Positions 932-27,538 of a stretch of 64,000 nt of DNA are shown piece by piece (the stretch's first letter is position 1; every line of letters starts with the position of its first letter). This DNA comes from an uncultured bacterium (GTDB lineage: Bacteria > Patescibacteriota > Dojkabacteria > J137). Both the position numbers and the translations under genes were made by a program. The stretch is taken from positions 936,690 through 1,000,689 of the forward strand of contig OY969472.1 of assembly GCA_963700155.1 (NCBI GenBank), read 5' to 3'. The notes beneath the pieces are model-generated. The model did no database searches, was not told the DNA's origin, and saw only the letters and a program-made list of their open reading frames with translations.

Positions 932-1696
932 ATGAAAAATAAATCTATTAAATTAAACCAGAGTAAAAAAGTTTTTCAATTAAAGGGCTTTGGCCAAAAG
1001 GCCAAAGCCCTTTATTATGCAAAAACTTTATCAGTATATAAATTAGTTAGAAAAACTACAAAGTATGAAAATTACAAAGCATTGATTTCAATTTCTTTAA
1101 CGGTTTTAATACTTGTTGTAGGTATCTCAATCTATAAATTTCCTACTTTGGTTGAACCTAAAGTTCTTCCGATTAATACTATAAAAGCTACTATCCTAAC
1201 ATATTCAACTGATCACCCGAGCGAGGATCAAGTAAGTGATTATCATGTTTCAGATAAAAATCCCCGCTTAATAAATTTCCCTTCTCTAGGAATTAAAGGT
1301 TTTATAGAACAAGTTGGTGTTGATCAAAATAATGCAATTGCTGTTCCGGATAATATTAATATGGCAGGTTGGTATGTAAATAGTGTAAAACCTGGTGAAT
1401 CTGGGTTAAGTATAATAGATGGACATGTCGATGGATTGTATAGCGATGGTGTGTTCAATAAAATACAATTCCTTCAAAAAGATGATACATTTGAAGTTGA
1501 ATATGGTGATGGACACGTTGTGAATTTCAAGGTTGTTGATATACAAACTCCACTAAATGCTGGCGCTGCTAAAGTTTTATATTCTAAACATTCTGATATA
1601 AAAAGTCAGTTAAACTTAATTACTTGTGGGGGAACGTATTCAAAAGATAAAAAAACATATGATCACAGAGTTATAGTTGTATCCGAACAGATTTAA
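932..1696 (+). CDS. Sortase family transpeptidase with an N-terminal TM anchor.
   Basis: His motif IIDGHVDG, Cys motif LNLITCGG (TLxTC-like) and a downstream Arg (DHRVIV). Overall sortase beta-barrel pattern IPSLGI...PGE.G. Confidence 0.55.
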   Translation: MKNKSIKLNQSKKVFQLKGFGQKAKALYYAKTLSVYKLVRKTTKYENYKALISISLTVLILVVGISIYKFPTLVEPKVLPINTIKATILTYSTDHPSEDQVSDYHVSDKNPRLINFPSLGIKGFIEQVGVDQNNAIAVPDNINMAGWYVNSVKPGESGLSIIDGHVDGLYSDGVFNKIQFLQKDDTFEVEYGDGHVVNFKVVDIQTPLNAGAAKVLYSKHSDIKSQLNLITCGGTYSKDKKTYDHRVIVVSEQI

Positions 1697-1884
1697 TAGT
1701 TATTCATTTTTTAAACAGTGGTACAAAAATGTTGAAATAATCATTTACACTTGAATAGACTTTTGTAACATACCAAATACAAGGAGTATTCAATATAGGG
1801 AAAGTTGCTGGACCAGTCCTGAAACGTCAGATTGAACTAAAAGTAAATATATCTTCAATGAATTTTCTGTTGTAAGATGATGAT

Positions 1885-2589
1885 ATGTTAAAAGTATTCA
1901 CACAAAATTGTTTTGGAACAAATATCTTTACATCAAACTTAAGACTTAAGTTTATCAGGGATTTTATTGAGGTTGAACAACCTGATTTTGTTTTCTTGCA
2001 AGAAATAATTTTCAAATTTCAAGTAGATACGATTACTCCAAATAATTATTCAGCTATATTTGTCTCAAATGGATATCTTGTTGATGGAGGTTTACTAACT
2101 TTAGTAAGAAATGATTATCAAGTTTTAAAATCTTACTTTAAAAGGTATTCAAAACAAGGAAAGATTTTAAGTAGTCAAATTTCTGATAGGATTTTAAGGA
2201 AAGGGTTTTTAGATGTTGAAGTAGATACAGATTTTCATTTAATAAACACACATTTGCTTGCAACTTACTCTAAGGAATTTATTTATGATAAAAACCAAGA
2301 GTCACAATTAATAGAATTATATAAATATTTGAAACAATTCAAAAATTTTATACTTGCTGGAGATTTTAATTTTGATGAAGATTCAATATTTTATAAAAAA
2401 CTATTAAAAGAATTGGATTTGAATGATTTAACTTATAAAATGGGGAATACTTCATTAACTAGCGCTAGAAAATTAGACATTATATTTCATTCTAAACCCT
2501 ATAAAGAAATTGAAAGAAATTTTGTAGATTATAAAGCAAAAAAGTATCCCTCTGATCACAAGGGCATTATTGTTGAATTTGGAGAATAA
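1885..2589 (+). CDS. Endonuclease/exonuclease/phosphatase (EEP) family protein.
   Basis: Motifs DFVFLQEI, GDFNFDE and SDHKGI are typical of the EEP / DNase I-like fold. Confidence 0.55.
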   Translation: MLKVFTQNCFGTNIFTSNLRLKFIRDFIEVEQPDFVFLQEIIFKFQVDTITPNNYSAIFVSNGYLVDGGLLTLVRNDYQVLKSYFKRYSKQGKILSSQISDRILRKGFLDVEVDTDFHLINTHLLATYSKEFIYDKNQESQLIELYKYLKQFKNFILAGDFNFDEDSIFYKKLLKELDLNDLTYKMGNTSLTSARKLDIIFHSKPYKEIERNFVDYKAKKYPSDHKGIIVEFGE

Positions 2590-2595
2590 ACTAAC

Positions 2596-2640
2596 ATGGG
2601 GTAGAACATGGTGTTCAGTCAGAGAACTATTTATACAGAG
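2596..2640. repeat. 45-nt direct repeat copy 1 (atggggtagaacatggtgt...), about 39/45 identical to the copy at 4426..4470.
   Basis: Seen directly. The two copies flank the arsR/trx/arsP-like cassette. Confidence 0.6.
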
Positions 2641-2662
2641 CCTAATAACTCTCTAACTGAAC

Positions 2663-3640
2663 TTACAAAATAATATTAAATAAATACCCTGTGAAAATTA
2701 TCCCTAAAGTCAGTATTGTTATATAAATTGCTAATAACTTTGGCTTTAAAACCTTTCTTAGAATTATCATTTCAGGTAAAGATAGTGCTGTAACTGACAT
2801 CATAAAAGAAAGTGATGTACCAATCGGCAGTCCTTTTTCTATCAAAGATTTTACTATAGGAATAGTACCAGCAGCATTTGAATAAAGTGGAACACCAATC
2901 AAAACAGCTATCGGAACTGCTAACCAATTATCTTTACCTGCAATTTGGGCCAAAAAGTTTTCTGGAGCATAACCATGTACTAAAGCTCCAATTCCCACAC
3001 CAATTAAAACATAAGGAAAGACTTTCTTAATAAGGTCTTTTGTGTATTCAAATGAGTCTTTCATCCTCTCTTTAAAGGTTAATTTGACTAATCCTATAAC
3101 ATTTTTTATAGCAATCTTCCAAACATAGTCTTCGACTAAATGCTCAAGCTTTAATCTTCCAAGAATAAACCCTGCAACTGTTGCAATAATAAGCCCAGAA
3201 ACAACATACAATAGCGCAACACTTGGTCCGAACATACCTAGAAGCAAAATAGCTGCAACTTCATTAATCATTGGAGCTGAAATTAAAAAGGAGAAAGTTA
3301 CTCCAAGCGGAACACCTGACTCAACTAGTCCAATAAAAAGAGGGACTGCTGAGCACGAACAAAATGGCGTTATTATGCCTATCAATGAAGCTAATAAATT
3401 TCCAACAATCTCGAACCTTGTGGATAAAAACTTCTTAGTTTTTTCAGGCGGTAGATATGACCTTATTATTGAAACAGCATAGATTATTACACATAAAAGA
3501 ATAAATATTTTTATGCTGTCATAAATAAAAAAGTTTAGAGAACCAGCTATTATGCTTGTTTTATCAAGATTTAGTAAAGAGTAAGTGAGCCAATCAGCGA
3601 GTATTTGTATTGGGTAAAAAATATCCATATTTATTTGCAA
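2663..3640 (-). CDS. DUF318/ArsP-like permease. The TPFCSCS motif suggests an organoarsenical or metal efflux permease.
   Basis: Polytopic membrane protein with the TPFCSCSAVP motif. Forms an operon with an ArsR-family regulator and a thioredoxin-like protein. Confidence 0.5.
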   Translation of the reverse strand: MQINMDIFYPIQILADWLTYSLLNLDKTSIIAGSLNFFIYDSIKIFILLCVIIYAVSIIRSYLPPEKTKKFLSTRFEIVGNLLASLIGIITPFCSCSAVPLFIGLVESGVPLGVTFSFLISAPMINEVAAILLLGMFGPSVALLYVVSGLIIATVAGFILGRLKLEHLVEDYVWKIAIKNVIGLVKLTFKERMKDSFEYTKDLIKKVFPYVLIGVGIGALVHGYAPENFLAQIAGKDNWLAVPIAVLIGVPLYSNAAGTIPIVKSLIEKGLPIGTSLSFMMSVTALSLPEMIILRKVLKPKLLAIYITILTLGIIFTGYLFNIIL

Positions 3641-3938: not shown

Positions 3939-4268
3939 TTAGTTAATATCAATGAACTTAAATAGTTTTGCAATTTTGTCTTTCATCGATGACTTAATGA
4001 AGTAAAAAAGCTGATTACCTTTTCTTTCCTTATCGAGCACTCCACCTTCTTGCATAACTTTCAGATGGTGTGAAACTAGATTTTGAGGAAGTTCAATTTT
4101 CTCAGCCAAATCACAGACGCAAATCTCTTCATTATTCAAAATGCAAAGAATTTTTATTCTATTCGGCTCAGATATAATCTTTAAGAGGTCTGCTGAAGAA
4201 TCAATTTGGTTGAATCTGCTAGTATTTTCATCACAACATTTTGCTTTTGTCATAGTTTTGTATATCAA
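3939..4268 (-). CDS. ArsR/SmtB-family metalloregulator (wHTH).
   Basis: HTH segment ICVCDLAEKIELPQNLVSHHLKVMQEGGVL. First gene of the three-gene minus-strand operon. Confidence 0.6.
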   Translation of the reverse strand: MIYKTMTKAKCCDENTSRFNQIDSSADLLKIISEPNRIKILCILNNEEICVCDLAEKIELPQNLVSHHLKVMQEGGVLDKERKGNQLFYFIKSSMKDKIAKLFKFIDIN

Positions 4269-4425
4269 TAGGTATTGATATAGTAGCCCGACGTTGAAAC
4301 TATGTCAATAGATATTGATATAGTTTTGAGAATATTTAATTAAGAAAATTCTACTAATGTTATATATTAGTTCTGATGAAAGATGTTAGAACTTAATTTT
4401 TGCAGACAGATAAATGTTATAGACA

Positions 4426-4495: not shown

Positions 4496-5239
4496 TTATT
4501 CTGTAAAAGTCCAGCCTAAATCAGCCTTCGGATATTCACATATCAAAATGCCTGCCTGATGCCTTTTTAATGAGGTAATGGTTCCATCAGGACACACAAA
4601 TGATGAAGGCATTCTAGAGTAGCGAGATGAAGAATTACTTCCAGAAATATACATTAAGCTATCAGTTGACCTAGTAATGAACTGCGCTCTCATTAACTCA
4701 TCCATACTATTTTTTGGTTTGGAACTGTTAGCGTTATAGAAAGATATAAACAACACCTCTACACCTGCATTTTTATAATCTTGAAAAAAACTAGGAAAGT
4801 TTGAATCGTAGCAAATTAAAAAACCGCACTTCACACCTTTTATATCATAGACAAGGCTATTTTCTTTGTTTTCAAACTTCTCTTTTTCCTTCCCATACAA
4901 ACGAGATTTGATGTAGTGACCTGCTATCTTGCCTTTATCCGTAATCAAGCAAGTAGCATTAAATGGGTTTCTATTTCCTGAGCTAGGTTGATGTACACCA
5001 ATTACGATATTTATATCAGACTCAGCAGCAATTGTTTTCAAATCTTCCATAGATTTATCCAACAAATTCCAATCAATTTCGGCTATCTCAGTCTGGTATC
5101 CTGATAGTGCTAATTCTGGAAAATGAATTACCTCCACTTTGGATTTTGCAGCTTCTTTAATTTGCCTGGAAATATAACGCATATTTTGTGCGATGTTGGT
5201 CGACACTGGGAATTGGCTTACAGCAATTTTAAGTTTCAT
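4496..5239 (-). CDS. Carbon-nitrogen hydrolase (nitrilase superfamily).
   Basis: E-K-C triad context: FPELALSGY, KSRLYGKE, LICYD. Overlaps the upstream gene by 11 nt. Confidence 0.65.
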   Translation of the reverse strand: MKLKIAVSQFPVSTNIAQNMRYISRQIKEAAKSKVEVIHFPELALSGYQTEIAEIDWNLLDKSMEDLKTIAAESDINIVIGVHQPSSGNRNPFNATCLITDKGKIAGHYIKSRLYGKEKEKFENKENSLVYDIKGVKCGFLICYDSNFPSFFQDYKNAGVEVLFISFYNANSSKPKNSMDELMRAQFITRSTDSLMYISGSNSSSRYSRMPSSFVCPDGTITSLKRHQAGILICEYPKADLGWTFTE

Positions 5240-6023
5240 TGTCTATCTGATAAAACTTATAAAATTCTTCAATACCGCACTTAGGAATTAGAAGTTTCAT
5301 TGGAAAAGTCTGCAATAATTCATCAATGTTTTTGGCTTCTTTGATTTTACTTAAAAATTTGATTTTTACTTGTTCATCTACTTCCTTTTCACTATTTATA
5401 AATTGCCCCCATATTCCACTGCTTCTTGGGAATGGAATTTCTTGAGTTCCGATTCCATTCATAAATGTTGAAGGAAATAATCTTCGATACGCTTCATAAT
5501 TGTATAGCCATGAACCTCCAGCAACATATTTTGCTGATGGAAAATTAGCTTTGATATATTTAAACATTTCCGCCAGCTCCTTCAAACGCTGTTCAATTCT
5601 TTGGTGAGAAAGTGGACCGAGTCCGCTTTTATCTTGATTGGAAAAATGTAGAGTTATTGTTTCCTTTGGTTGTTCATATTCGAATCTAAAACATCCAAAT
5701 CGTATTTTATCTGGAGACTTAATATTTCGTCTTTGTTTTTCATTTTCTAAGAAAAGATTATATGCAGTCTCAGCATAATTACCAACAGCTCTTGCAGATT
5801 GTAGGAAGTTTTGCCATATAGGATTATCACTATTAAACTGCCAATCCTTGACCCCTATCCGTTTGTAAAAAGCAGTATATTCCATCAAGCACTCCTCTAA
5901 AGTCTTTCCTGTAAGCTCCATAGCTTTTAATGCAAACTGGTACTGTAAATCAAAGTGTTCTCTAGGTATATCAGGTTTAAATGCTTCTTCTACTTGCTCA
6001 TCTAGATTCATATTGCTTGGCAT
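5229..6023 (-). CDS. Hypothetical protein, translationally coupled between the SAM methyltransferase and the C-N hydrolase.
   Basis: ORF with overlaps at both ends. No recognisable motif. Confidence 0.4.
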   Translation of the reverse strand: MPSNMNLDEQVEEAFKPDIPREHFDLQYQFALKAMELTGKTLEECLMEYTAFYKRIGVKDWQFNSDNPIWQNFLQSARAVGNYAETAYNLFLENEKQRRNIKSPDKIRFGCFRFEYEQPKETITLHFSNQDKSGLGPLSHQRIEQRLKELAEMFKYIKANFPSAKYVAGGSWLYNYEAYRRLFPSTFMNGIGTQEIPFPRSSGIWGQFINSEKEVDEQVKIKFLSKIKEAKNIDELLQTFPMKLLIPKCGIEEFYKFYQIDNET

Positions 6024-6769
6024 TTAAAAATAATTGTTGGAGTTACAAGATTTGCCCTGAATTTTGAATAATATCTTGAGGGATTATCAGATTGTCTTTC
6101 GCTGTAAATTTCTGGATTTGGTTCATAAACTTCAGAGATTTTGAAACCACTTTCATTTAATAAGTTAATCCAGGTGGAAATTTTTCTATGCTGTATATAT
6201 GCCCCACTACTGCCTACCCAGTCTGCTACAAATCTTGCCCCTTCATCTAGATAAGATTTATCCATGACTAATTTGTTATTTTCAACATTAAATCTTGAGT
6301 AAAATGGATGTTCCCAACTCCAAGTAAAATATCCCCCTTTATTTAAATAACTTCTGATATTTTTTAATGTCTTTTTCGGTGAAGTAGTCCAACCAATAGC
6401 ATAAACGGAAAATACAAAATCAACTTTCTCAGATAATTGAAGGTTTTCTTCCATAGAATTAAGATAAAGCACAACTTTGCCTTCTTCTATAGCCTTTTTA
6501 TTCAAATCTGAAGCTAATTCTTTTTGTTTTTCGGATATGTCCAACCCATAAATTTTCTTAGCACCTTTTTCAATAAGGTAGTGAATAGAATGTCCACTTC
6601 CAAAGCCTATTTCCATAATAGTTTTGCCTTTTATCTCACCTAGTAAGTCTATCTTTCTAAATTCGCCAAATGGTCCCCATGAAGGTAAATATAGACCGCC
6701 CGAAAATTTTTCAGCTACCTGCTCCCATGCTGCTTTATTTGTTTTAAGTATCTTATTAGGAACTACCAT
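6008..6769 (-). CDS. Class I SAM-dependent methyltransferase (Methyltransf_11-like).
   Basis: Motif I IMEIGFGSGHS and motif II-like KIYGLDIS. Confidence 0.65.
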   Translation of the reverse strand: MVVPNKILKTNKAAWEQVAEKFSGGLYLPSWGPFGEFRKIDLLGEIKGKTIMEIGFGSGHSIHYLIEKGAKKIYGLDISEKQKELASDLNKKAIEEGKVVLYLNSMEENLQLSEKVDFVFSVYAIGWTTSPKKTLKNIRSYLNKGGYFTWSWEHPFYSRFNVENNKLVMDKSYLDEGARFVADWVGSSGAYIQHRKISTWINLLNESGFKISEVYEPNPEIYSERQSDNPSRYYSKFRANLVTPTIIFKCQAI

Positions 6770-6814
6770 ATAGGTCTTTTCAGATTAATATCAAATATTT
6801 GTTAAGTTATCTTT

Positions 6815-7051
6815 CTAATCTATATTACTATTTTTTAAAGTATCATCCTGAGCTAATTCTTCAAGTAATGAACTATCAATGAGTATTTGTGAGAATGTTT
6901 CAAGTTCTCCTATTAGTTTTCTAATCTGTTCATCTGTATATTTCTGTCCTTCCTTTTCCAAAATTTTTCTTGCTTCTTCAACATTCATGATTATTATTTC
7001 TGTATTGAACTTCATTGAATAGCTTTTAATAAAGATTGAGTTACATGCCAC
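6815..7051 (-). CDS. Small helical hypothetical protein. The true start may be the internal Met (MNVEEARKILEK).
   Basis: ORF overlapping the 3' end of the C5-MTase gene. No motif. Confidence 0.3.
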   Translation of the reverse strand: MACNSIFIKSYSMKFNTEIIIMNVEEARKILEKEGQKYTDEQIRKLIGELETFSQILIDSSLLEELAQDDTLKNSNID

Positions 7052-7995
7052 ATCATAACTGGGGGTACTGCATTTCCTAATACCTTGTATGACTTGGTTT
7101 TTGATTCATGAAGTTTAAAAGTATCTGGGAAAGATTGTATTCTAGCAACTTCTTTTGGTGTGAACATTCGGTATCTTCCATTTATTTTTAAAACTGGGTC
7201 GGTACTATTTAAACTTACCTTAGCAAGGTGTGCACCAACAGTATTAGAAGGTAAGTTAATATCCTGTGCCCTGCCCTTATTCATTTTCTTGTTAGAGTTT
7301 AGCAGTCCTTGTACAGCCCTATCACTAAAATAATAATGACTTTCTATTGTATCCTCATTCTCAATAATTGTTTTTAATGCGACTTTATTTTCTACATGAG
7401 TTGGAATTGGGAACTCAAATTTTTCAAAAGCATCTTTGTCTCTAAATCCAACTATAAAAACTCTTTCTCTCCTCTGAGGCACTCCATAATCGGAGGCATT
7501 AAGAAGTTTATATTTTATAAAATAACCAGCTTTAGTAAATGTCTCAATAATCAAAGGAAAGGCTTGTTTCTGATTTGCAGATAATAGACCTTTTACATTT
7601 TCAGCAATGAAATATTTCGGTTTTTTATTTTCAAGAATCTTATACATTTCAAAGAATAATTTCCCATTTTCATTTTTATATCCTAATCTTGGGGGATTCT
7701 GAGCTACTATTGAAAAAGACTGGCAAGGAAACCCACCAATTAATAAGTCGTGTTCAGGTACTTCCGAAATATCGAGTTGTCTAATATCATTACAAATAAT
7801 TGGGTGTTCAAAGTTATCGTTATAGACACCACAGGCGATAGGGTCATTATCAATTGCATAGTTAATTTCAAATGGATTCTTGGCGTAAAGATTGTCTAGA
7901 AAATTAAATCCTCCGACTAATCCTAAATCCATTCCTCCACAGCCCGAGAAGAGAGATGCAACTCTTATTTTATTTCTACTAGTAATTTTTCCCAT
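7012..7995 (-). CDS. DNA (cytosine-5)-methyltransferase.
   Basis: Motif I FSGCGGMDLG, motif IV GGFPCQSFS, motif VI ENVKGL, motif X LGNAVPP. Confidence 0.85.
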   Translation of the reverse strand: MGKITSRNKIRVASLFSGCGGMDLGLVGGFNFLDNLYAKNPFEINYAIDNDPIACGVYNDNFEHPIICNDIRQLDISEVPEHDLLIGGFPCQSFSIVAQNPPRLGYKNENGKLFFEMYKILENKKPKYFIAENVKGLLSANQKQAFPLIIETFTKAGYFIKYKLLNASDYGVPQRRERVFIVGFRDKDAFEKFEFPIPTHVENKVALKTIIENEDTIESHYYFSDRAVQGLLNSNKKMNKGRAQDINLPSNTVGAHLAKVSLNSTDPVLKINGRYRMFTPKEVARIQSFPDTFKLHESKTKSYKVLGNAVPPVMMWHVTQSLLKAIQ

Positions 7996-9386
7996 TGTCC
8001 TGACTTTTCATTATATATAATTTCTGCACCATTTCTTGGAAGCATTTGAAGTAGATTTGACTTATATTTCCCCACAGGGTCTTGAATTACAAATAAATCT
8101 AAATCTTCCTTAGATATTAGTAACCTGTAGACAAAATACCTATTGTTATGTCCTTCTGCTGAAGTCCATTCACTTGGAGTCATGTGGAATCTATTTACAC
8201 TTAATCTTCCCTTACTTATTGTAGTTTTTACCTCAATATATCTCCTTGTACCATCAAATTCAGCCGATTGAATATCATAACCAACTGCATACTGGCTAGG
8301 TATCTTTTGTACATATGGAAGGAATTGTTCACCTCCAATATTAATTAGCCTTTGTTTTTCATGCCTATAAATAATAGCTTCCCCAGTATCACCAATCTTT
8401 TTAGTTCTCAGTTCATTTTCTTCAAAAATATCTTTCAAAACTTCGGCAAGTAATGCGTGAACAGGCTGAACCTCACTATCCACTCCTTCGAGGTAGGTAG
8501 TCAAATCAGTTGAGAATAAATCCGTAGATAGTTTAGTATTGACGTATTTGAACCAGTTAAAACTAGCCTGATTTATTATTGTATAGTCTTTTTCTTCAAT
8601 ATTTAAATTATTGTAAAGAGAGTTATATCCATCAAAATAATTACTGCTCTTAATAAATGCCTGAATTACTTCATAGTTTGATTTATTTAAATAATATTTA
8701 TTATTGGGTTGAAGAATCAACAAATCAGCCAAAACTAAATAGTCTAGTATATCTCCTGCATATCTAATAACATCACCCTCCCAGTCATAAGTTAACTTCT
8801 TTTTTTTATTTTCTTCAATTAGTTTGAATACATCTTCTGTTTGATATTCTCCAGTTGTAACTCTTAAATCATTAAATATGCAATGTGTCGCTTCTGCTTT
8901 ATCAATACCAAATCTTTTTGAAGTAGTTATCTCACCATAATCTAAAAGAGCAAGTATAAATTTTGCAGGTTTAAACTTTATTTTAGAATTTATTAACCCT
9001 GCAATCTCTTGTGGTTTTAAATGTCCACCTGGATATTGAAAGTAATATAAAAAATATCTAAAAAATTCAATTAAATCTTGGTTCTCAGCTAACAGTTTTG
9101 CCATTGGTGATGGAGACATTGTTCCATCTGCGTTGTTGCTTATTAGTCCGAATAACGCAGATATTTCTGTTCTCCAATTGTTAATAGTCTTTTCAGTTTT
9201 ATCTAAGTTGCTAGGGAATAGTTTAATTGCAGAGTTTACTTTCTCTATAAAATTAGCCTTTGGTAGAGTTGGAATTTGAGACAACTCATTAGACATATAG
9301 AACAAAACGTTTTCTACATCATTTTTAAATCGTGGTCTTACGTGATGTAATCTAAAAAAATGTTCCTCAGGTATGATATATTTCAT
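7965..9386 (-). CDS. Putative restriction endonuclease with a C-terminal PD-(D/E)xK nuclease domain of DUF3883-like type.
   Basis: C-terminal GYDIQS...IEVKTT...FHMTPSEW...YFVYRL pattern (D...EVK core). Gene is sandwiched between two C5-MTases and overlaps both. Confidence 0.45.
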   Translation of the reverse strand: MKYIIPEEHFFRLHHVRPRFKNDVENVLFYMSNELSQIPTLPKANFIEKVNSAIKLFPSNLDKTEKTINNWRTEISALFGLISNNADGTMSPSPMAKLLAENQDLIEFFRYFLYYFQYPGGHLKPQEIAGLINSKIKFKPAKFILALLDYGEITTSKRFGIDKAEATHCIFNDLRVTTGEYQTEDVFKLIEENKKKKLTYDWEGDVIRYAGDILDYLVLADLLILQPNNKYYLNKSNYEVIQAFIKSSNYFDGYNSLYNNLNIEEKDYTIINQASFNWFKYVNTKLSTDLFSTDLTTYLEGVDSEVQPVHALLAEVLKDIFEENELRTKKIGDTGEAIIYRHEKQRLINIGGEQFLPYVQKIPSQYAVGYDIQSAEFDGTRRYIEVKTTISKGRLSVNRFHMTPSEWTSAEGHNNRYFVYRLLISKEDLDLFVIQDPVGKYKSNLLQMLPRNGAEIIYNEKSGQWEKLLVEIK

Positions 9387-10420
9387 AGGTATTGTTTTAA
9401 TTTTTCGGCAATAGCTTTAGCCATTAATGGGGGAACTGCGTTTCCCACCTGTCGATATTGACTAGTTTTAGAGCCTTTAAAAATAAATTTATCTGAAAAA
9501 GATTGAATCCTTGCGCTTTCCCTCACTGTCGGTACACGATTCCATTTATAATGAAAATGGTGTCTATGTCCTGTATCTATTGTAAAACTTGGCATACTAC
9601 TATTCAAACGTGTCCAAGCAATATGCATCTTCCTAGTTCCTCTTAAATTCTCTGGCAAATCTTTGTAATTACCGCCATCAGGTACTAAGTTTATTATTTC
9701 AATTGTCTTATCATTATGTACTGTAATTTGATGATTATAAATACCTTTAGAACCAGCCCTAATTTCTTCCTGATACTTATTTTGTGGCTCAAATATATAA
9801 GGAGTCCCATCATCAAGGCTTCCTTCTGGTAAGTCGCTCAATGCCTCGAAAGAGGTCACATGAATTGTAGTTCTTTTCTCTGGGAAAACAAAACTATCTG
9901 ATAATAATCCTATAAAGACTAATCGCTTTCTTTTTTGTGGAACACCATAATCTGAAGAAACTAAAATAGAAGAGCTAACTTTATATCCTAATTGTGAAAA
10001 ATCTTCAATAATTTGTTTTTTAACTTCACCTTTGGCAATAGAACCCAAGTTCGGAACGTTTTCCATTAGAAAGGCTCTAGGTTTTATCTCTGAAACAATT
10101 TTTACAAAATATTTGTAAAGGGAATTTCTTGGGTCTTCAATCATCCTTTTTCCAGCGATTGAAAAGCCCTGACAAGGTGGTCCACCAACAATAATATCTA
10201 TCTCTGAATTTACCTTATTTAATATTTCTTCTGACGTAATATCTTCTATATTTGCTAGGATTGCTTTAGCTCCCACATGATTAAATTTAAATGACTCTAT
10301 TGAATCTTTATCATTATCAATACCAAGTAAAGGAATAAATCCTGCTTGTTCAAATCCATTTGATAATCCCCCACATCCAGAGAATAAATCTATAAATTTT
10401 ATTTCTTTTTTAGTTTTCAT
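9383..10420 (-). CDS. DNA (cytosine-5)-methyltransferase (second copy).
   Basis: FSGCGGLSNGF, GGPPCQGFSIAG, ENVPNL, VGNAVPPLMA. Confidence 0.85.
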   Translation of the reverse strand: MKTKKEIKFIDLFSGCGGLSNGFEQAGFIPLLGIDNDKDSIESFKFNHVGAKAILANIEDITSEEILNKVNSEIDIIVGGPPCQGFSIAGKRMIEDPRNSLYKYFVKIVSEIKPRAFLMENVPNLGSIAKGEVKKQIIEDFSQLGYKVSSSILVSSDYGVPQKRKRLVFIGLLSDSFVFPEKRTTIHVTSFEALSDLPEGSLDDGTPYIFEPQNKYQEEIRAGSKGIYNHQITVHNDKTIEIINLVPDGGNYKDLPENLRGTRKMHIAWTRLNSSMPSFTIDTGHRHHFHYKWNRVPTVRESARIQSFSDKFIFKGSKTSQYRQVGNAVPPLMAKAIAEKLKQYL

Positions 10421-10488
10421 GTCGTATTTAATTCAAGTATGTACATGCGATTATTAATTATACATCATCAAATTTCTGATGAGATATT

Positions 10489-11256
10489 TTAATTAAACTT
10501 TGCCCAATCGAAGCTCTGGTCTCCTTTCCTATTCAATATAATGTTTAACTTATTTGCTCTTACGTCGTAAATTGGTTTTAAAAACTCAAGCATTATTTGT
10601 TGATTTTCTAATCCAATAAAGAAAGGACACTCATATCCATCCGAATATGCTATGTGCCATTCAGCTGGCCACTGGTCTAAATTCTTTGTTCTATAGGTTA
10701 ATATTGCTATGTCATGATATTTTAAGGGAAAGGTAAGAAAGCTAGGTAGCTCAAAGTTATCTAATTCATCTATGTCAAATGATGAATTAATTCGAATACT
10801 CATAGGAGGGTTCATCATGGGTATCGCAAAAACCAATAAAAACTGTGGTTTTATTTCGGTTTTAGAAAGAATAAGATAATCACTCTTTCTGTTAAAAACT
10901 GGTGATTTTTCTGGAGAATAGGATGGTTCTTTAATAAAAGCTGAAAATAGATGTCTAACCCCACCACTATTTAGTTGTGCATTTAGTAATGTATTTCCTT
11001 TAACTATCATTTGAGAGTCTTTTTCACCGTAAGCTTTATAATGCGCTCTTCCAGAGGCGTGTATAGAGAGTTTTCCCTCTTTTTCACCCAATTGAGTAAT
11101 TAACCTATTGTTTTTAAAATCTTGGTTAAGCCATATTGTAGAACTAAATTCAGGCCAATTTACATATATTGAACCATCATTTTCCTGTGTAAATGAGAAA
11201 ATCTGATAATCTTTATCATTTTTCTTGAGAAAAACTCTTCTCTTATTAACTATCAT
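10489..11256 (-). CDS. Hypothetical protein, first gene of the co-directional R-M-containing cluster.
   Basis: ORF only. Same strand, 68 nt upstream of the MTase. Confidence 0.4.
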   Translation of the reverse strand: MIVNKRRVFLKKNDKDYQIFSFTQENDGSIYVNWPEFSSTIWLNQDFKNNRLITQLGEKEGKLSIHASGRAHYKAYGEKDSQMIVKGNTLLNAQLNSGGVRHLFSAFIKEPSYSPEKSPVFNRKSDYLILSKTEIKPQFLLVFAIPMMNPPMSIRINSSFDIDELDNFELPSFLTFPLKYHDIAILTYRTKNLDQWPAEWHIAYSDGYECPFFIGLENQQIMLEFLKPIYDVRANKLNIILNRKGDQSFDWAKFN

Positions 11257-11327: not shown

Positions 11328-12050
11328 ATGGAGATTAATTTAACCCCACAAAAGGCTTTTGAAGGAATTGGCTATTGTATTCTCAATGCAAAAAATAAAT
11401 TTGAAGATGCGGAAGTTCTATTTAAAGAGAAAAAATATTCAAGTGCTTTTTCTCTATATGCTATAGCTTTGCAGGAATGTGGCAAAATTAAAATTATAGC
11501 TGAAATTTCAAAGTTGAATAAAAATCAAAACATCATGTTAAAAGATTTGTGGAAAAAGTTCCGCGACCATAAGATAAAAGATTTTATGGGAGATTTTTTT
11601 CAAGTTTCTGGTGAAGGAGGTCCAAAAGTAGTTATGAATGAATATCAGAGGCTACTAAGGGAAAATATGGCTTTTAGCCCTGAAGATAGTAGATTAGATT
11701 CACTTTATGTAGATTTTAATTCGAAAGCTGAAGCTTGGAAATACCCTCAAAACTCTTTAGAAAAAACTTCAGCTATAAGGAGTAAAGTTATAGAAACATT
11801 AAATCGAATCAAAAGATTAGAACTAATAGGTTTCTACTCAGAGGGATATTTAAGAAAATATAAGAAATTTTATCAAGAGAACTTCTCACCTGTATTTGAT
11901 AAACTTTTAAATAACCCTGTGGCATTTGCAGAGGAGGCAGATAGACAATACTGGAAGGATTTAAATTTGAAATTTATAACTGATTTGATAACACAAGGTA
12001 TTTTGAAAAAGACACCGTATAAGAAGAGACCTCAAAACGAGGCCTCTTAA
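11328..12050 (+). CDS. Possible HEPN/AbiV-like abortive-infection protein.
   Basis: N-terminal helix with SSAFSLYAIALQECGK resembles the AbiV/HEPN family. Located in the defence neighbourhood. Assignment is weak. Confidence 0.3.
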   Translation: MEINLTPQKAFEGIGYCILNAKNKFEDAEVLFKEKKYSSAFSLYAIALQECGKIKIIAEISKLNKNQNIMLKDLWKKFRDHKIKDFMGDFFQVSGEGGPKVVMNEYQRLLRENMAFSPEDSRLDSLYVDFNSKAEAWKYPQNSLEKTSAIRSKVIETLNRIKRLELIGFYSEGYLRKYKKFYQENFSPVFDKLLNNPVAFAEEADRQYWKDLNLKFITDLITQGILKKTPYKKRPQNEAS

Positions 12051-12065
12051 CTTATTCGAGACACA

Positions 12066-12596
12066 CTATTCTTGTGTGATTGTTACAGTCCAACTAACTC
12101 CAGAAATAACATGCACATAATATGTACCTTCAGTTAACCCTCTAATGGTTGTGTCACCGTGTCCATCTTCTGCGCCATCAGTAGAGATATTTAAATCTTC
12201 GCCAGTCAATCCATTAAGAAAAGTATTCTCTCCTTCCTTTTGAAGGGTAATTGATGAATACGTCCCATATGAGCCACCTGTTGTAGTAGCTGTCATTTTG
12301 GCAGTTCCATCATGTACAGTGAAGCTCTCAGTATCTTTATTTCCTTTTCCAGAATAAGTTACATTTACTGGTTCAACTGGAGCTTTTGTATTTGTATCGG
12401 GTTGTTGACTATTGTTAGTAGTGTTTGTTGTTGAGTTTGAATTATTACCATTTGAAGAAGTTAAAAGTGCAACTCCTCCGCAACAAAGTAATAAAACTAC
12501 TATTAAACCCACTACTACGCCTAGAGTTCCCGTTATCCCTCCAAAAAAGGACTTTGTTGCTGAACTAGCCGATGATGCAGCTATATTTTGAGCCAT
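12066..12596 (-). CDS. Membrane-anchored Ser/Thr/Asn-rich small protein.
   Basis: N-terminal TM segment and a low-complexity S/T/N stretch. Confidence 0.4.
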   Translation of the reverse strand: MAQNIAASSASSATKSFFGGITGTLGVVVGLIVVLLLCCGGVALLTSSNGNNSNSTTNTTNNSQQPDTNTKAPVEPVNVTYSGKGNKDTESFTVHDGTAKMTATTTGGSYGTYSSITLQKEGENTFLNGLTGEDLNISTDGAEDGHGDTTIRGLTEGTYYVHVISGVSWTVTITQE

Positions 12597-12945: not shown

Positions 12946-13953
12946 ATGAAGAAGAAAAACAGTAATCCTACAAAAAGGAATAAAGAAGCTCACATTGATT
13001 TAGATTTGGATAATCCTCAACTTAAGTATGAACTTAATCACCTTAAAGAAGAAAATGAATTGTTTAAAATAGCTGCTTTTGAAGAACTTAAGCGTTTCCA
13101 AGCACAATTTCAATCTATGGCGTTACTGCCAACATATGCAATTACTGAGGCAATCAAGCCGTTGATTGATTTTCAAAATGTCTATTTAAACCAAATTAAG
13201 GAGATGACAGAGCTAGTTCAAAAATCTGTATACAATTCTGGAATTATGCAAATTGTTAGTTCTATTCAAAAATTACAAGTAGGTGCTTTCGCAGGTTTGA
13301 TTATAAACTCCGAAATTGAGAACCAAGTCATCTCATCTAAAAATGGACTTTTTACCACTTCCACCATTAGAAAAGCTAAGCTCACAGCCAGAAGTGAAGT
13401 GGGTATCAATATTGAAAAAAATACTACTACAGAAGTATCTAGTGGTATTTCATATAGAAAATTAGAGACAATTGAAACCAAACTTGAAATTCTAGATGAA
13501 AATATGAAAAGCCTCAGTAGTAAAGATGATTTAAGAATGATTAAGGAAAAGCTAAGTAAACATGATAATTTTTTTGATATGATTCAAGATAATCCATTCC
13601 AATTTTTTAAAATAAAAAAAGTGGATTTTGTTAAAGGATATAGTTATTTTCTAATTAATGGCAATATAAAAGTGATTATTCCTTCAAAAACATTACAGCA
13701 CTATATTTGTGAAGTCTTATTCTCGGGCAAAAAAGATAATATCACTGATGAATGGTTCACAGATGAAATTATTCATGAGTTGAAGTCATTTCTTGGAGTT
13801 GCTGAAATAAAAAGATTAACATGGTCAAAATTAAAAGAGGCAATAATTAATATTAATGAAAAAATAGCCATACAAACTACAAAGCAAGATGTGATAACAA
13901 TACCCAGAGCAGAAATAGCTCAATTAAATTACGAATATTTTTCTCCTAAGTAA
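12946..13953 (+). CDS. Hypothetical coiled-coil protein.
   Basis: ORF only. Confidence 0.4.
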   Translation: MKKKNSNPTKRNKEAHIDLDLDNPQLKYELNHLKEENELFKIAAFEELKRFQAQFQSMALLPTYAITEAIKPLIDFQNVYLNQIKEMTELVQKSVYNSGIMQIVSSIQKLQVGAFAGLIINSEIENQVISSKNGLFTTSTIRKAKLTARSEVGINIEKNTTTEVSSGISYRKLETIETKLEILDENMKSLSSKDDLRMIKEKLSKHDNFFDMIQDNPFQFFKIKKVDFVKGYSYFLINGNIKVIIPSKTLQHYICEVLFSGKKDNITDEWFTDEIIHELKSFLGVAEIKRLTWSKLKEAIININEKIAIQTTKQDVITIPRAEIAQLNYEYFSPK

Positions 13954-13980
13954 GTAAATTCCAGCTAAGCACTTCTACTC

Positions 13981-14007
13981 CAGCCGAACTCGGCTGACCT
14001 TTCTTTC
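13981..14007 (+). terminator. Hairpin cagccgaactcggctg followed by a T-rich run.
   Basis: Perfect 7-bp stem 28 nt after the stop of the 12946..13953 gene. Confidence 0.4.
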
Positions 14008-14041
14008 ATAAAATTTCCTCATAACTTTTAAAAATATAAGT

Positions 14042-14290
14042 ATGAAGAAAGAAGCCCAACATTTTAACACATTCGACCTAAATCTTGCTGCGGTTCTCCT
14101 TGCTAAAGGTTACATTCTTGAACAAGTTCAAAGAAATTCTAATGGCAAATCTCTATTTGTTTTTGATGAGTCAGATGCCTTGAAAAAACTAATAGAAAAG
14201 TACTGGAAAGGGAATCTTAAAATGAATCCCCAAGATGTATTCACAAGCCTAAAGGTCATTAAGAATAGGCTTTACAGCAGTTATTCATAA
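14042..14290 (+). CDS. Small hypothetical protein.
   Basis: ORF only. Confidence 0.35.
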   Translation: MKKEAQHFNTFDLNLAAVLLAKGYILEQVQRNSNGKSLFVFDESDALKKLIEKYWKGNLKMNPQDVFTSLKVIKNRLYSSYS

Positions 14291-14448
14291 ACCTATGGAA
14301 AAGGAGAGTCTTGATAAATTTAAAATTATTTTCAAGAAGGTTTATGGGATAGACCTGAGTGAAGCTCAAGCCCTCGATTTAGCAACTAATTTGCTCAATT
14401 TATATCGGGCAGTCTACAAAGAAAATCTAAATATTAATATTAAAAAAT

Positions 14449-14919
14449 ATGAAAAGGAAATACAATCTACGAAAAATCAAGACTAAAAGGTCTTATACTT
14501 CCGAAGAGCTTGCAGAAACTTTAAAAGTCCATGTTCAAACTGTTCATGACTGGAAAAGAAATGGATTACTACCCCTTGAAGAAAAAACTTCGCCGCATCT
14601 GTTTCTTGGAACTGAAGTTAAAAGTTTTCTTACAAAATTTGTATCTAAGCATAAGGTCTCTCTGAAAGAAGGAGAATTTTATTGTTTATCTTGTAAAAAT
14701 GCAGTGAAACCAACAAGTTTTGAATCAATCAGAAGAGGAATTACCATCGGGAACTCCAGAGAATCGCTCATACTTAAAGCGACTTGTCCAATATGTTCAA
14801 AAGTCGTGCATAGATTTAGTAGTGCTCCATTAATTGCTGAAGCGGAAAAGCACTTAGTTCCTAAACAAATCCGAAAAACAACAGATTTAGAAAAGGATTC
14901 AATTATGCTATTTGACTAA
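14449..14919 (+). CDS. Excisionase/MerR-like HTH (HTH_17-type) protein with a C-terminal Cys4 zinc ribbon.
   Basis: YTSEELAETLKVHVQTVHDWKRNGLLP matches the Xis/AlpA-type HTH. CLSCKN...CPICSK. Lies upstream of a tyrosine integrase. Confidence 0.4.
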   Translation: MKRKYNLRKIKTKRSYTSEELAETLKVHVQTVHDWKRNGLLPLEEKTSPHLFLGTEVKSFLTKFVSKHKVSLKEGEFYCLSCKNAVKPTSFESIRRGITIGNSRESLILKATCPICSKVVHRFSSAPLIAEAEKHLVPKQIRKTTDLEKDSIMLFD

Positions 14920-14951
14920 TAGAAAGTTAATTTATTTTTTATATAAAGTTT

Positions 14952-15386
14952 ATGAGAGCATCAAATTTATTTCAAATTTTGGATTTATCCAAAGACGTAG
15001 TAGCTGAAGTTAATATCTCTGATTTAATTAAATCGGGATTAGTATTGAATGAGGATTATGAGATTAAAAAGGATTTTTTATATAGCCAACCCGTTAAAAA
15101 TGATGGTGTGTTTTCTTTAGATATAACGAGAAGTAACGGTTGGTTTGGAAATATTGAAATACATTTCGCCTTTTTTATTGATACTAGTGAGAGCGATGAA
15201 AATATCCATATATCGCAGGAAGTGAGAATTGTGAAGAATAAAAATGGAAAATTGCAATTTGTTTGTCCAATTTTAGGTGGTGAAAATTTATGCTCAACTC
15301 TCTATTTGAGAAACGATTTTCCACTCTTTGGCTCAGATGAGGGTCTAAATGTGGGTTGGTGGCTAAAAAGTGCTCGAAGAGATTAA
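14952..15386 (+). CDS. Hypothetical protein.
   Basis: ORF only. Confidence 0.35.
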   Translation: MRASNLFQILDLSKDVVAEVNISDLIKSGLVLNEDYEIKKDFLYSQPVKNDGVFSLDITRSNGWFGNIEIHFAFFIDTSESDENIHISQEVRIVKNKNGKLQFVCPILGGENLCSTLYLRNDFPLFGSDEGLNVGWWLKSARRD

Positions 15387-15448
15387 CTAGGTTTTACAAA
15401 GTCCGTTATAACACTCGATTATGAACATTATCTTTTATTACAAATTAT

Positions 15449-16555
15449 ATGGCCAAGAACAAAGCAAAAAACGAAAAAATCAAACGAAAATATTTTGATT
15501 GGTTGCGAGGTGCTGAAGGTTTTTCAGATTTAACAATTGATGCAGTTGAAAAAGCAATCTGGAAATATGAAGAATTTACGAAAGAAGCCGATTATGGTGA
15601 ATTTAATGATAAAGTCGCAACGCAATTCAAAAAATGGCTTTCAACTGCAAAGAATCCAAGAACAGGGAATACTTTATCATTAACATCTCAGTACCATATT
15701 TTAAGGCATTTAAACTCACTTTTTGTGTGGCTTTCTGGGCAGGTCGGGTATAAATCAAAAGTCTCAACTTCTGATATTAGATACTTGAGATTGAGCAAAG
15801 AAGATTCAAGAAAAGCAACAAGTCCTAAACTTCCAAAATACCCTAGTCTTAGCTACATAAAGAAACTTTGCAGTTTTGAAGTTAATGATGAGATGGATAG
15901 AAGAGATAGAGCCTTAATTGCTTTTACAGCACTTTCAGGAATGAGAGATAGAGCAATCATTACTCTACCGATTTGCTGTTTTGATGTTCAAAAATTAGTT
16001 GTTTATCAAGACCCGACCAAAGGAGTTCATACTAAATTTTCAAAATCTATAATTACAACAATATTTAGATTTGATAAAGAACTTTTGGAGTATATTCTTG
16101 ACTGGCAAACGTATTTAACTGAGGAGAAAATGTTTACAGGTGAGAATCCGCTTTTCCCAAGCACACTAATAGAACTTGAGAGTGAAGTTAATCATTCTTT
16201 TGTCGCAAAAGGAGTGGAACCAATCTTCTGGAAAAATGCAGGAGCAATGAGAAAGATATTTCAAAACAGAGCAAAAGAAACTGGGCTGGATTATTTTTCG
16301 CCCCACAAATTTAGGCATTTTGCAATTAACGAAGCCCAGAAGTATGTAAACAATGCCGAAGAATTAAAAGCCGTCAGTCAAAATGTAGGACATGAGAATT
16401 TAACAACAACATTTTTCGGGTATGGAGGAATAGATGACTTCAGGGTTACAGAGATTATCGGTAATATGAACTTTGAGAAAAATAAGTCAAAAAGGAAACT
16501 AGATAAAGACACCATTGAAAAGCTGAAAGATTTATTGAACGAACAAGATGAGTGA
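15449..16555 (+). CDS. Tyrosine site-specific recombinase (phage-integrase family).
   Basis: R-containing box I (SGMRDRAII), HKFRHF (HxxR) and GHENLTTTFFGYGG with the catalytic Tyr. Confidence 0.7.
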   Translation: MAKNKAKNEKIKRKYFDWLRGAEGFSDLTIDAVEKAIWKYEEFTKEADYGEFNDKVATQFKKWLSTAKNPRTGNTLSLTSQYHILRHLNSLFVWLSGQVGYKSKVSTSDIRYLRLSKEDSRKATSPKLPKYPSLSYIKKLCSFEVNDEMDRRDRALIAFTALSGMRDRAIITLPICCFDVQKLVVYQDPTKGVHTKFSKSIITTIFRFDKELLEYILDWQTYLTEEKMFTGENPLFPSTLIELESEVNHSFVAKGVEPIFWKNAGAMRKIFQNRAKETGLDYFSPHKFRHFAINEAQKYVNNAEELKAVSQNVGHENLTTTFFGYGGIDDFRVTEIIGNMNFEKNKSKRKLDKDTIEKLKDLLNEQDE

Positions 16556-16621
16556 TATAAGGTTTATTTATAGAAACTATTGATTTAAAATGTACACATA
16601 TTTAACTCTTAATATAAAGCT

Positions 16622-17365
16622 ATGGAATTGAAAGACAAAGTTGTTTTGATAACAGGCTCTTCGAGCGGAATTGGGAAAGCCATTGCTATTAGATTAGCAA
16701 GTGAGGGAGCGAAGATTGTTATTAACTATAATTCTAACAAGGAAGGTGGGGAATCTACATTAAGTGAGATTCAAAGTTTAGGTAATGAAGGTCTGGTGGT
16801 TCAAGCAGATATTAGTGATGAATCTCAGGCGGAAAATCTAGTAAAAACAGTTATAGATAAGTTTGGAACAATCGATATTCTTGTTAATAATGCAGGGGGT
16901 TATATCGATGGTGATGATTGGAATGGTGAGAGCGAAGCATGGCTTAAAACTTTTCAAAAAAATATTCTTTCTGTAATGAATGTTTCTAAATATGTTCTCA
17001 GAGAATTTATTGAAGCTAAAAAAGGAAATATTGTTAGCATTGCAACAAGATATTCACTTTCAGGTCAATATGATTCACCAGCCTACTCTGCTTCAAAAGC
17101 AGGTATTGTAAATCTAACTCAAGGTTATGCAAAACTACTTTCACCGTTTGGAAGAGCAAATTGCATATCACCTGGAGCTGTAGAAGCTGGTTACTGGCTA
17201 AGAGCACCAAAAGAAGAGCTTGATGAAACTTTGGAAACAATTCCATTTAAAAGATTGATAAGTAAAGAGGAAGTTGCAGAAATGGTTTTTTACCTATCCT
17301 CTGAGCATTCTAAATCTATTACAGGTCAAAATTTTTTAATTGATGGAGGATTTAATTTAAAATAA
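16622..17365 (+). CDS. Short-chain dehydrogenase/reductase (SDR, FabG-like).
   Basis: TGSSSGIGKAIA, NNAG, YSASKAG. Confidence 0.8.
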   Translation: MELKDKVVLITGSSSGIGKAIAIRLASEGAKIVINYNSNKEGGESTLSEIQSLGNEGLVVQADISDESQAENLVKTVIDKFGTIDILVNNAGGYIDGDDWNGESEAWLKTFQKNILSVMNVSKYVLREFIEAKKGNIVSIATRYSLSGQYDSPAYSASKAGIVNLTQGYAKLLSPFGRANCISPGAVEAGYWLRAPKEELDETLETIPFKRLISKEEVAEMVFYLSSEHSKSITGQNFLIDGGFNLK

Positions 17366-17386
17366 TTTAATTTTTAAATAATAGAA

Positions 17387-17872
17387 ATGAATGCAGAGCC
17401 AAATCCAGAACACTTGAGAGAAATTCAAAGAGAGATTGTTTCAGGGCTTATTTTCTCAAAAGATGGGAAACTACTTGTTGGCAAAAAAGACCCGAATAAA
17501 GGTGGTGTATACGCTGATTGTTGGCATATTCCAGGAGGTGGAGTTGATGAAGGAGAAGATAAAATGACCACTTTAAAAAGAGAAATTAGAGAGGAAACAA
17601 ATTTAGATGTTGAGGGAGCTGAGCTTGAATTAGTTGATGATACTGGTCGTGGTTCAACAGAAAAGACATTGAAAGATACAGGTGAAAAAGTATGGTGCAA
17701 TATGAATTTTAATGTGTACAGGGTAAGGTTAAATAGAAATGCTTCTGAGATTGAATTAAATCCATCTGATGATTTAGTTGAATTAAAGTGGGTAGATATT
17801 TCTGAACTTAAGGAGCTTAAGCTAACACCACCAAGTATTGAATTGTTTAAAAGACTTGGATATATAGATTAG
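17387..17872 (+). CDS. NUDIX hydrolase.
   Basis: Nudix box GGGVDEGEDKMTTLKREIREETNL. Confidence 0.75.
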   Translation: MNAEPNPEHLREIQREIVSGLIFSKDGKLLVGKKDPNKGGVYADCWHIPGGGVDEGEDKMTTLKREIREETNLDVEGAELELVDDTGRGSTEKTLKDTGEKVWCNMNFNVYRVRLNRNASEIELNPSDDLVELKWVDISELKELKLTPPSIELFKRLGYID

Positions 17873-17901
17873 AGAATAAAATTTAAAATATAAGTATAAA
17901 T

Positions 17902-27462: not shown

Positions 27463-27538
27463 GGGGTGGACAGTGGGGCTCGAACCCACGACAACTCGCT
27501 CCACAGGCGAGCGCTCTACCAACTGAGCTATGTCCACC
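27463..27538 (-). tRNA. tRNA-His (anticodon GTG) with a genomically encoded G-1 and no encoded CCA.
   Basis: Manual fold: G-1, acceptor GTGGACA/TGTCCAC, D arm GCTC-AGTTGGTA-GAGC, anticodon loop CTGTGGA, T arm GTGGG-TTCGAGC-CCCAC, discriminator C. Confidence 0.85.

Follow-up and report, generated by a model that had tools for sequence, protein, structure and literature searches.

A probable autonomous BpuJI-type restriction-modification cassette lying among unrelated accessory genes

The BpuJI system and the three-gene core of the locus

BpuJI from Bacillus pumilus is a Type IIS restriction-modification (R-M) system that recognises 5'-CCCGT; its endonuclease gene, bpuJIR, is flanked by bpuJIM1 and bpuJIM2, both of which encode 5-methylcytosine (m5C) DNA methyltransferases (MTases) (Sukackaite et al. 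2007, PMC1874659). The C-terminal domain of the endonuclease resembles archaeal Holliday-junction resolvases (AHJR), with an active site, YD348...E367VK369, identified through alanine mutants (PMC1874659), and structures of its N-terminal domain are available (2VLA, 5HLT). The site is asymmetric, cleavage takes place nearby, and the enzyme becomes active as a dimer bound to two sites. Here we describe a run of eight minus-strand genes at positions 4496-11256 of a 64,000-nucleotide stretch of DNA from contig OY969472.1 (hereafter the window), which had originally been predicted to be a novel eight-gene DNA-modification or defence system. Our comparisons indicate that three of these genes, M1, R and M2, very probably constitute a BpuJI-type R-M cassette that is autonomous and surrounded by accessory genes unrelated to it. 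A second point of reference is HgaI, a Type IIS system with two separate strand-specific MTases, one for each strand of its asymmetric site. In HgaI-like systems, recognition and cleavage are carried out by distinct domains of the nuclease; both the nuclease and the recognition folds differ from those of the R protein described here.

A re-check of the open reading frames (ORFs) located all eight co-directional ORFs at exactly the coordinates of the original prediction, and the junctions it had quoted (-4, -31, -40, +45, -16 and -11 nucleotides (nt)) were verified. One junction had been missed, a gap of +68 nt between the first gene, encoding a 255-amino-acid (aa) protein, and M1. As in BpuJI, a single R gene (7965-9386, minus strand, 473 aa) lies between two m5C MTase genes, M1 (9383-10420, minus strand, 345 aa) and M2 (7012-7995, minus strand, 327 aa).

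M1 is assigned to the C5 cytosine DNA MTases by Pfam and NCBIfam (PF00145, 4.1e-76; TIGR00675, 3e-64) and contains intact FSGCGG, PPCQ, ENV, QKRKR and GNAV motifs. M2 is likewise assigned by Pfam (PF00145, 2.7e-77), with intact FSGCGG, FPCQ, ENV, QRRER and GNAV motifs, and motifs I, IV (PCQ), VI (ENV), VIII and X are retained by both enzymes. The two proteins are only ~31% identical to each other, as expected if each of them serves one strand of an asymmetric site.

R has the two-domain architecture of the BpuJI endonuclease. Its N-terminus matches BpuJI_N over nearly the whole length of the profile (PF11564, 8.7e-95, residues 3-278 against profile positions 1-277 of 278), and its C-terminus matches NOV_C/DUF3883 (2e-12), an AHJR-like PD-(D/E)XK nuclease domain. 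A phmmer comparison with the PDB sequences of the R.BpuJI N-domain (2vla/5hlt) gave 1.4e-15 over ~250 residues. The catalytic triad is intact, GYD370...IE385VK387 being the counterpart of YD348...E367VK369 in BpuJI. The original prediction had called two C5-MTases, a DUF3883-like nuclease, a S-adenosylmethionine (SAM) MTase and a C-N hydrolase, all of which Pfam confirmed, and it had missed BpuJI_N. Its suggestion of "type IIS logic" also holds for the core, in the form of a BpuJI-family Type IIS enzyme with one m5C MTase per strand, given the BpuJI_N domain, the 2vla/5hlt match and the published gene layout. The restriction endonuclease family is large, with >2,700 matches, of which hundreds are full-length at 50-55% identity with both domains and many are labelled Patescibacteria; BpuJI-type Type IIS systems are very common in this group. 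A scan of viral contigs for relatives of the endonuclease found none.

Judged from its genes, the trio is a predicted BpuJI-type Type IIS R-M system of an already known kind. From the likeness to BpuJI we infer that M1, M2 and R are enzymatically active and that M1 and M2 act on different strands. In host DNA, M1 and M2 would each methylate their own strand of an asymmetric recognition site, and R would bind the unmethylated site through its N-terminal BpuJI_N domain. Binding would then release the C-terminal AHJR-like PD-(D/E)XK nuclease (YD370...E385VK387), which would cut near the site. The other five ORFs are very probably accessory genes of a surrounding variable, integrase-associated region and not components of the R-M system. 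Differences from BpuJI include the D-to-E spacing of the triad, which is 15 residues in the window (D370 to E385) vs. 19 in BpuJI, and the host, a Bacillus for BpuJI vs. an apparently small-genome Patescibacteria-like bacterium for the window, judging by its closest homologs and its 1.14-Mb source contig.

Boundaries, recurrence and promoter of the cassette

Blastn aligned a locus from a different sample (L097, SRR15221276) with the window across 3,410 bases with 0 gaps, 91.8% of the nucleotides being identical and positions 118-3527 of L097 corresponding to window positions 10420-7011. Base-by-base inspection showed that the similarity ends exactly at the ATG of M1 (10420) and at the stop codon of M2 (7012/7011), delimiting a discrete 3.41-kb cassette, M1-R-M2 (7011-10420, minus strand), as the unit common to both loci. 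The flanks of L097 are unrelated to those of the window, and the next gene after M2 in L097 is UvrD-like, with a Walker-A motif. Read from this alignment, the R-M trio appears as an autonomous unit bounded at the M1 start and the M2 stop, and it offers an unusually clean case of an R-M cassette moving as a unit delimited by its first start codon and its last stop codon. A search for direct or inverted repeats flanking the cassette returned only motifs common to both MTases and AT-rich chance matches.

The three genes have diverged unevenly from their counterparts in L097, with 89 nt and 21 aa differences in M1, 101 nt and 6 aa differences in R, and 91 nt and 12 aa differences in M2. The substitutions are mostly synonymous, which indicates purifying selection on M1, R and M2, with R the most constrained. 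This bears on whether the cassette could be a decaying or orphan remnant in which the methylases are active and the nuclease is dead, a reading that could draw on the absence of site avoidance: CCCGT/ACGGG occurs 19 times in the window vs. 14.9 expected (ratio 1.27). Such a count is uninformative here, because the cassette may recognise another sequence and host sites would be methylated. R is full length, its YD...EVK triad is intact, it is the gene of the three under the strongest constraint, and all MTase motifs are intact, making a dead nuclease very unlikely.

M1, R and M2 recur in the same order and orientation and with tight spacing in three other Patescibacteria loci: a 1.17-Mb Patescibacteria chromosome (L092, CP129476.1), a Pacebacteria contig (L094, JAGOVB010000001.1) and L095/L096 (L095 being Ga0172380_10000211). 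Identities of the orthologs in L092, L094 and L095 to the window proteins are 51-58% for M1, 52-53% for R and 59-61% for M2. The neighbourhoods of these cassettes all differ, and no homologs of the other five ORFs of the window were found around those of L092, L094 or L095/L096. Together with L097, accessory genes of the window thus stand beside the R-M genes in none of the four other cassette contexts (0/4; L097, L092, L094 and L095).

The cassette of L092 differs from that of the window in two further respects. Its M1 (5764-6999) carries an N-terminally fused HTH_17/MerR domain, whereas the window M1 is without a helix-turn-helix (HTH) domain. Directly after its M2 lies a gene for a Vsr very-short-patch repair (mismatch) endonuclease (9419-9832), which has no counterpart in the window; Vsr is a common companion of C5-MTases. 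A 255-aa ORF downstream of the L092 cassette was considered as a homolog of the 255-aa protein of the window and rejected, there being no tblastn match.

The 68-nt gap upstream of M1 contains a perfect extended -10 box, TGTATAAT (10450-10457, minus strand), as a candidate cassette promoter. This octamer occurs only 3 times in 64 kb, both strands counted, and is also found upstream of M1 in L097 at a similar distance; TGn-extended -10-like elements precede M1 in L092, L094 and L095. The cassette therefore probably has a promoter of its own in this gap, as far as can be read from these elements. The stretch from the TGTATAAT box to the M1 start codon also contains a palindrome, ATGTACAT (10439-10446, minus strand), which could serve as an operator for R-M autoregulation.

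These observations bear directly on the claim that all eight genes form one operon for a new type of DNA modification or defence, whose downstream enzymes would produce or tailor a modified base for the R-M pair to use. Such a system would account for the tight co-directional packing and for the absence of a predicted internal terminator. It is at odds with the cassette ends, which coincide with the ends of M1 and M2 in L097, with the three orthologous cassettes that lack the other genes, and with the likely promoter of the cassette itself. On comparative grounds the eight-gene system appears largely refuted already, and we consider it extremely improbable. The semblance of a new eight-gene system arose from the tight, co-directional packing of a mobile R-M trio with genes unrelated to it.

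Several points nevertheless weigh against an autonomous BpuJI-type cassette. Its boundaries are defined by a single near-identical copy, L097. The recognition domain of R is only distantly similar in sequence to that of BpuJI, so that it may recognise a sequence other than CCCGT. The interval from M2 to the downstream SAM MTase gene showed no terminator-like site, nor did the rest of the cluster, and the ORFs are co-directional and tightly spaced, so that the downstream genes may be transcribed by read-through from the R-M promoter; read-through, even if present, would not make the eight genes one system. Finally, the four larger accessory genes are linked both in the window and in L081, a locus described below, and could have a function of their own.

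The accessory genes and their neighbourhoods in other genomes

The genes around the cassette encode the 255-aa protein upstream (10489-11256, minus strand) and, downstream, a small ORF, a class-I SAM MTase (MTase11; 6008-6769, minus strand, 253 aa), a 264-aa protein (5229-6023, minus strand) and a C-N hydrolase of the nitrilase superfamily (4496-5239, minus strand, 247 aa). Family searches on the proteins that had been left uncharacterised resolved the 473-aa protein as R, and left the 255-, 264- and 78-aa products without family assignment, none of them having an above-threshold match in Pfam, NCBIfam or PADLOC. PHROGs gave no match for the 255-aa and 57-aa products and only a negligible one for the 264-aa protein (E = 0.0065). 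The 247-aa C-N hydrolase also had no match in PADLOC, and MTase11 had only a generic SAM-domain match to mad2 there.

MTase11 matches Methyltransf_11 (7.7e-13) and contains SAM motif I. The [DNS]PP[YFW] motif of amino-DNA-MTases was looked for in it and is not present, and its nearest solved relatives are the small-molecule MTases 3g5l, 3bkw and ToxA, in keeping with a small-molecule type. The C-N hydrolase matches PF00795 (1.8e-23, 83.7 bits vs. a cut-off of 23.2) and contains the Glu-Lys-Cys triad (E42/K111/C143), and its score falls short of all NCBIfam equivalog cut-offs.

Both the 255-aa and the 264-aa family are conserved, and neither has been characterised at all. An exhaustive search placed the 255-aa protein in a family of ~90 representative clusters, whose profile found nothing among PDB sequences. 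An AlphaFold2 model of this protein, built from 4 sequences, predicts an all-beta fold and is unreliable (pLDDT 42). The 264-aa family is small (54 clusters) and without annotation. Its member in the window has a ~100-residue N-terminal helical domain in addition to what may be a remote GNAT-like fold (Foldseek E >= 0.7), with no GNAT match in Pfam or NCBIfam and no match of the family profile to PDB sequences. The conserved motifs of the family are FGCF, HFxN, GGSWLYN and WGQF, and not the classical acetyl-CoA-binding motif; viral contigs scanned for this family contained no relatives. The start of the gene may lie at 6011, giving a 260-aa protein and a 4-nt overlap with MTase11.

The 264-aa protein provides one further argument for an eight-gene system, since Foldseek matched it very weakly (prob 0.23, E ~2) to Mom, the DNA-modifying GNAT-fold enzyme of phage Mu. 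The match lacks significance, and any GNAT-like fold would be expected to give one. The lack of a PADLOC model for the 255-, 264- and 247-aa proteins and of a DNA-MTase motif in MTase11 also speaks against such a system.

The small ORF lies outside the cassette on the minus strand and can be read as 78 aa from a GTG (6815-7051) or as 57 aa from the ATG at 6988 (6815-6988). The shorter form was called in an independent assembly, and it does not overlap M2. The probability of an open frame of such length arising by chance in the 242-nt spacer is ~0.002-0.01, and a chance open frame is thus unlikely on this estimate. No homolog was found in any locus compared, the ORF being absent 3' of M2 in L097, L092, L094 and L095 and absent from L081.

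L081 carries the accessory genes without the cassette. There, one strand encodes a contiguous run of homologs of the C-N hydrolase at 72% identity, of MTase11 at 70%, of the 264-aa protein at 49% and of the 255-aa protein at 36%. Next come homologs of window 12946-16555 (335/353-aa protein, DUF5659, small ORF, Xis-like HTH protein, tyrosine integrase). L081 contains no R-M genes, no AbiV, no homolog of the 176-aa gene of the window and none of the small ORF (6815-6988). By this comparison, all of these are extra DNA in the window. The presence of the accessory genes without R-M genes in L081 further counts against the eight genes being one system.

The arrangement in L081 raises the alternative that the 255-aa protein, SAM MTase, 264-aa protein and C-N hydrolase work together as a separate functional module, within which the R-M cassette has been inserted; this is compatible with an autonomous cassette. 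Such a module, as cargo beside the tyrosine-integrase module, might for example acylate and methylate a small molecule and hydrolyse its amide bonds, so as to tailor or detoxify it. All four genes are present in both loci, beside the same block of 335/353-aa protein, DUF5659, Xis-like protein and integrase. The order from MTase11 to the 264-aa gene is kept in both, with overlapping stop and start codons, and the catalytic motifs of the enzymes are intact, with small-molecule MTases, including ToxA, nearest to MTase11. The gene order as a whole differs, however, as the C-N hydrolase and the 255-aa gene exchange ends between the window and L081, and the identities between the two loci are very uneven. 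Since the window and L081 share the adjacent integrase module, the linkage of the four genes may reflect common descent.

The homologs of individual genes in other genomes also speak against a shared module. Two of the three closest homologs of the 264-aa protein (49-53%) stand alone, the third being that of L081. MTase11 has homologs at 61-62% identity in L087 and L088, where all the other genes are lacking, and homologs of the 255-aa protein at 41-49% identity are found in L084, L085 and L089-L091 without R-M genes nearby; each of these is closer than, or similar to, its counterpart in L081 and lacks the partners. Among 80 representative genomes carrying 264-aa homologs (Chloroflexota, Dojkabacteria, Saccharibacteria, Poribacteria, Caulobacteraceae and others), there was no adjacent C5-MTase, BpuJI-like gene, MTase11, C-N hydrolase or 255-aa homolog. 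Clustering of the neighbours in these genomes showed within-clade synteny only and no conserved partner across phyla.

A functional module of these four genes is accordingly unlikely, in our estimate. The earlier suggestion that the downstream genes might be a separate small-molecule module comes closer to the truth than the eight-gene system did, and as a claim about function it is still to be regarded as doubtful. The more specific proposal, that the four non-R-M genes are a cargo module of an integrase-associated element family in small-genome (Patescibacteria-like) bacteria, acting jointly on a small molecule or macromolecule with the R-M cassette merely inserted among them, seems to us improbable. 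The original prediction had asked whether MTase11, the 264-aa gene and the C-N hydrolase are repeatedly linked to C5-MTases, and had named their unlinking from R-M genes in other genomes as evidence against it. In L081, the 80 loci, L087 and L088 they are unlinked, and they are accessory rather than housekeeping genes.

Two details of the 255-aa family were recorded along the way. A MTase beside the 255-aa homolog in L089 was considered as evidence of a conserved pairing of the 255-aa protein with a SAM MTase; the pairing was rejected, as this MTase resembles MTase11 in the generic SAM-binding region alone (26%, E 0.004). In L085, the 255-aa homolog (1585-3050) adjoins a gene for a NERD-domain protein and is matched by two tblastn segments (residues 4-111 and 118-239); it appears to be split by a frameshift.

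The surrounding variable region

The eight-gene run lies within what looks like a defence or variable island, and the original prediction of an Abi-like gene and an integrative element alongside it is borne out by an AbiV gene, a tyrosine integrase and a large serine recombinase. AbiV, of the HEPN family, is encoded divergently from the cluster at 11328-12050 on the plus strand (PF18728, 73.3 bits vs. a cut-off of 27.1, E 3.1e-20; PADLOC AbiV, 5e-6). Its absence from L081 marks it as a second defence gene in a variable spot.

The mobile-element module (12946-19557) encodes the 335-aa protein, DUF5659 (82 aa), a 63-aa ORF, the Xis-like HTH_17 protein (156 aa), a 144-aa ORF and the tyrosine integrase (368 aa), and is syntenic with L081 7122-10007 except for the 144-aa ORF, which has no L081 counterpart. 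After the tyrosine integrase come genes for an SDR and a NUDIX protein and the large serine recombinase (17902-19557). Between AbiV and this module, a LOOT RNA (Rfam RF03000; 12708-12844, minus strand) was detected as a full-length match (53.8 bits, the gathering score being 46.4). The 176-aa ORF (12066-12596), which encodes a Ser/Thr/Asn-rich membrane-anchored protein, follows directly 3' of it on that strand, and both are absent from L081. The LOOT RNA may be a cis element or a small RNA beside the 176-aa gene.

The same DNA has also been assembled independently (L086, Logan ERR11571143) as a 23,042-bp contig corresponding to window 4403-27444, with 3 mismatches in 16,854 bases. It ends just beyond the C-N hydrolase at one side and 19 nt before tRNA-His (27463-27537) at the other, and its extent might mark a variably present island. 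No att-like direct repeats of at least 10 nt were found at the contig ends (4403 and 27444).

Downstream of the C-N hydrolase, the minus strand at 4261-4323 contains two 23-nt direct copies of CTATATCAATAnCTATTGAnATA, each with the inverted repeat TATCAATA-n4-TATTGAnA. The copies overlap a promoter-like site, TTGACA-17-TACTAT, just upstream of genes for an ArsR-family repressor (likely start ATG 4253) and an ArsP-type permease. They are probably a pair of ArsR operators.

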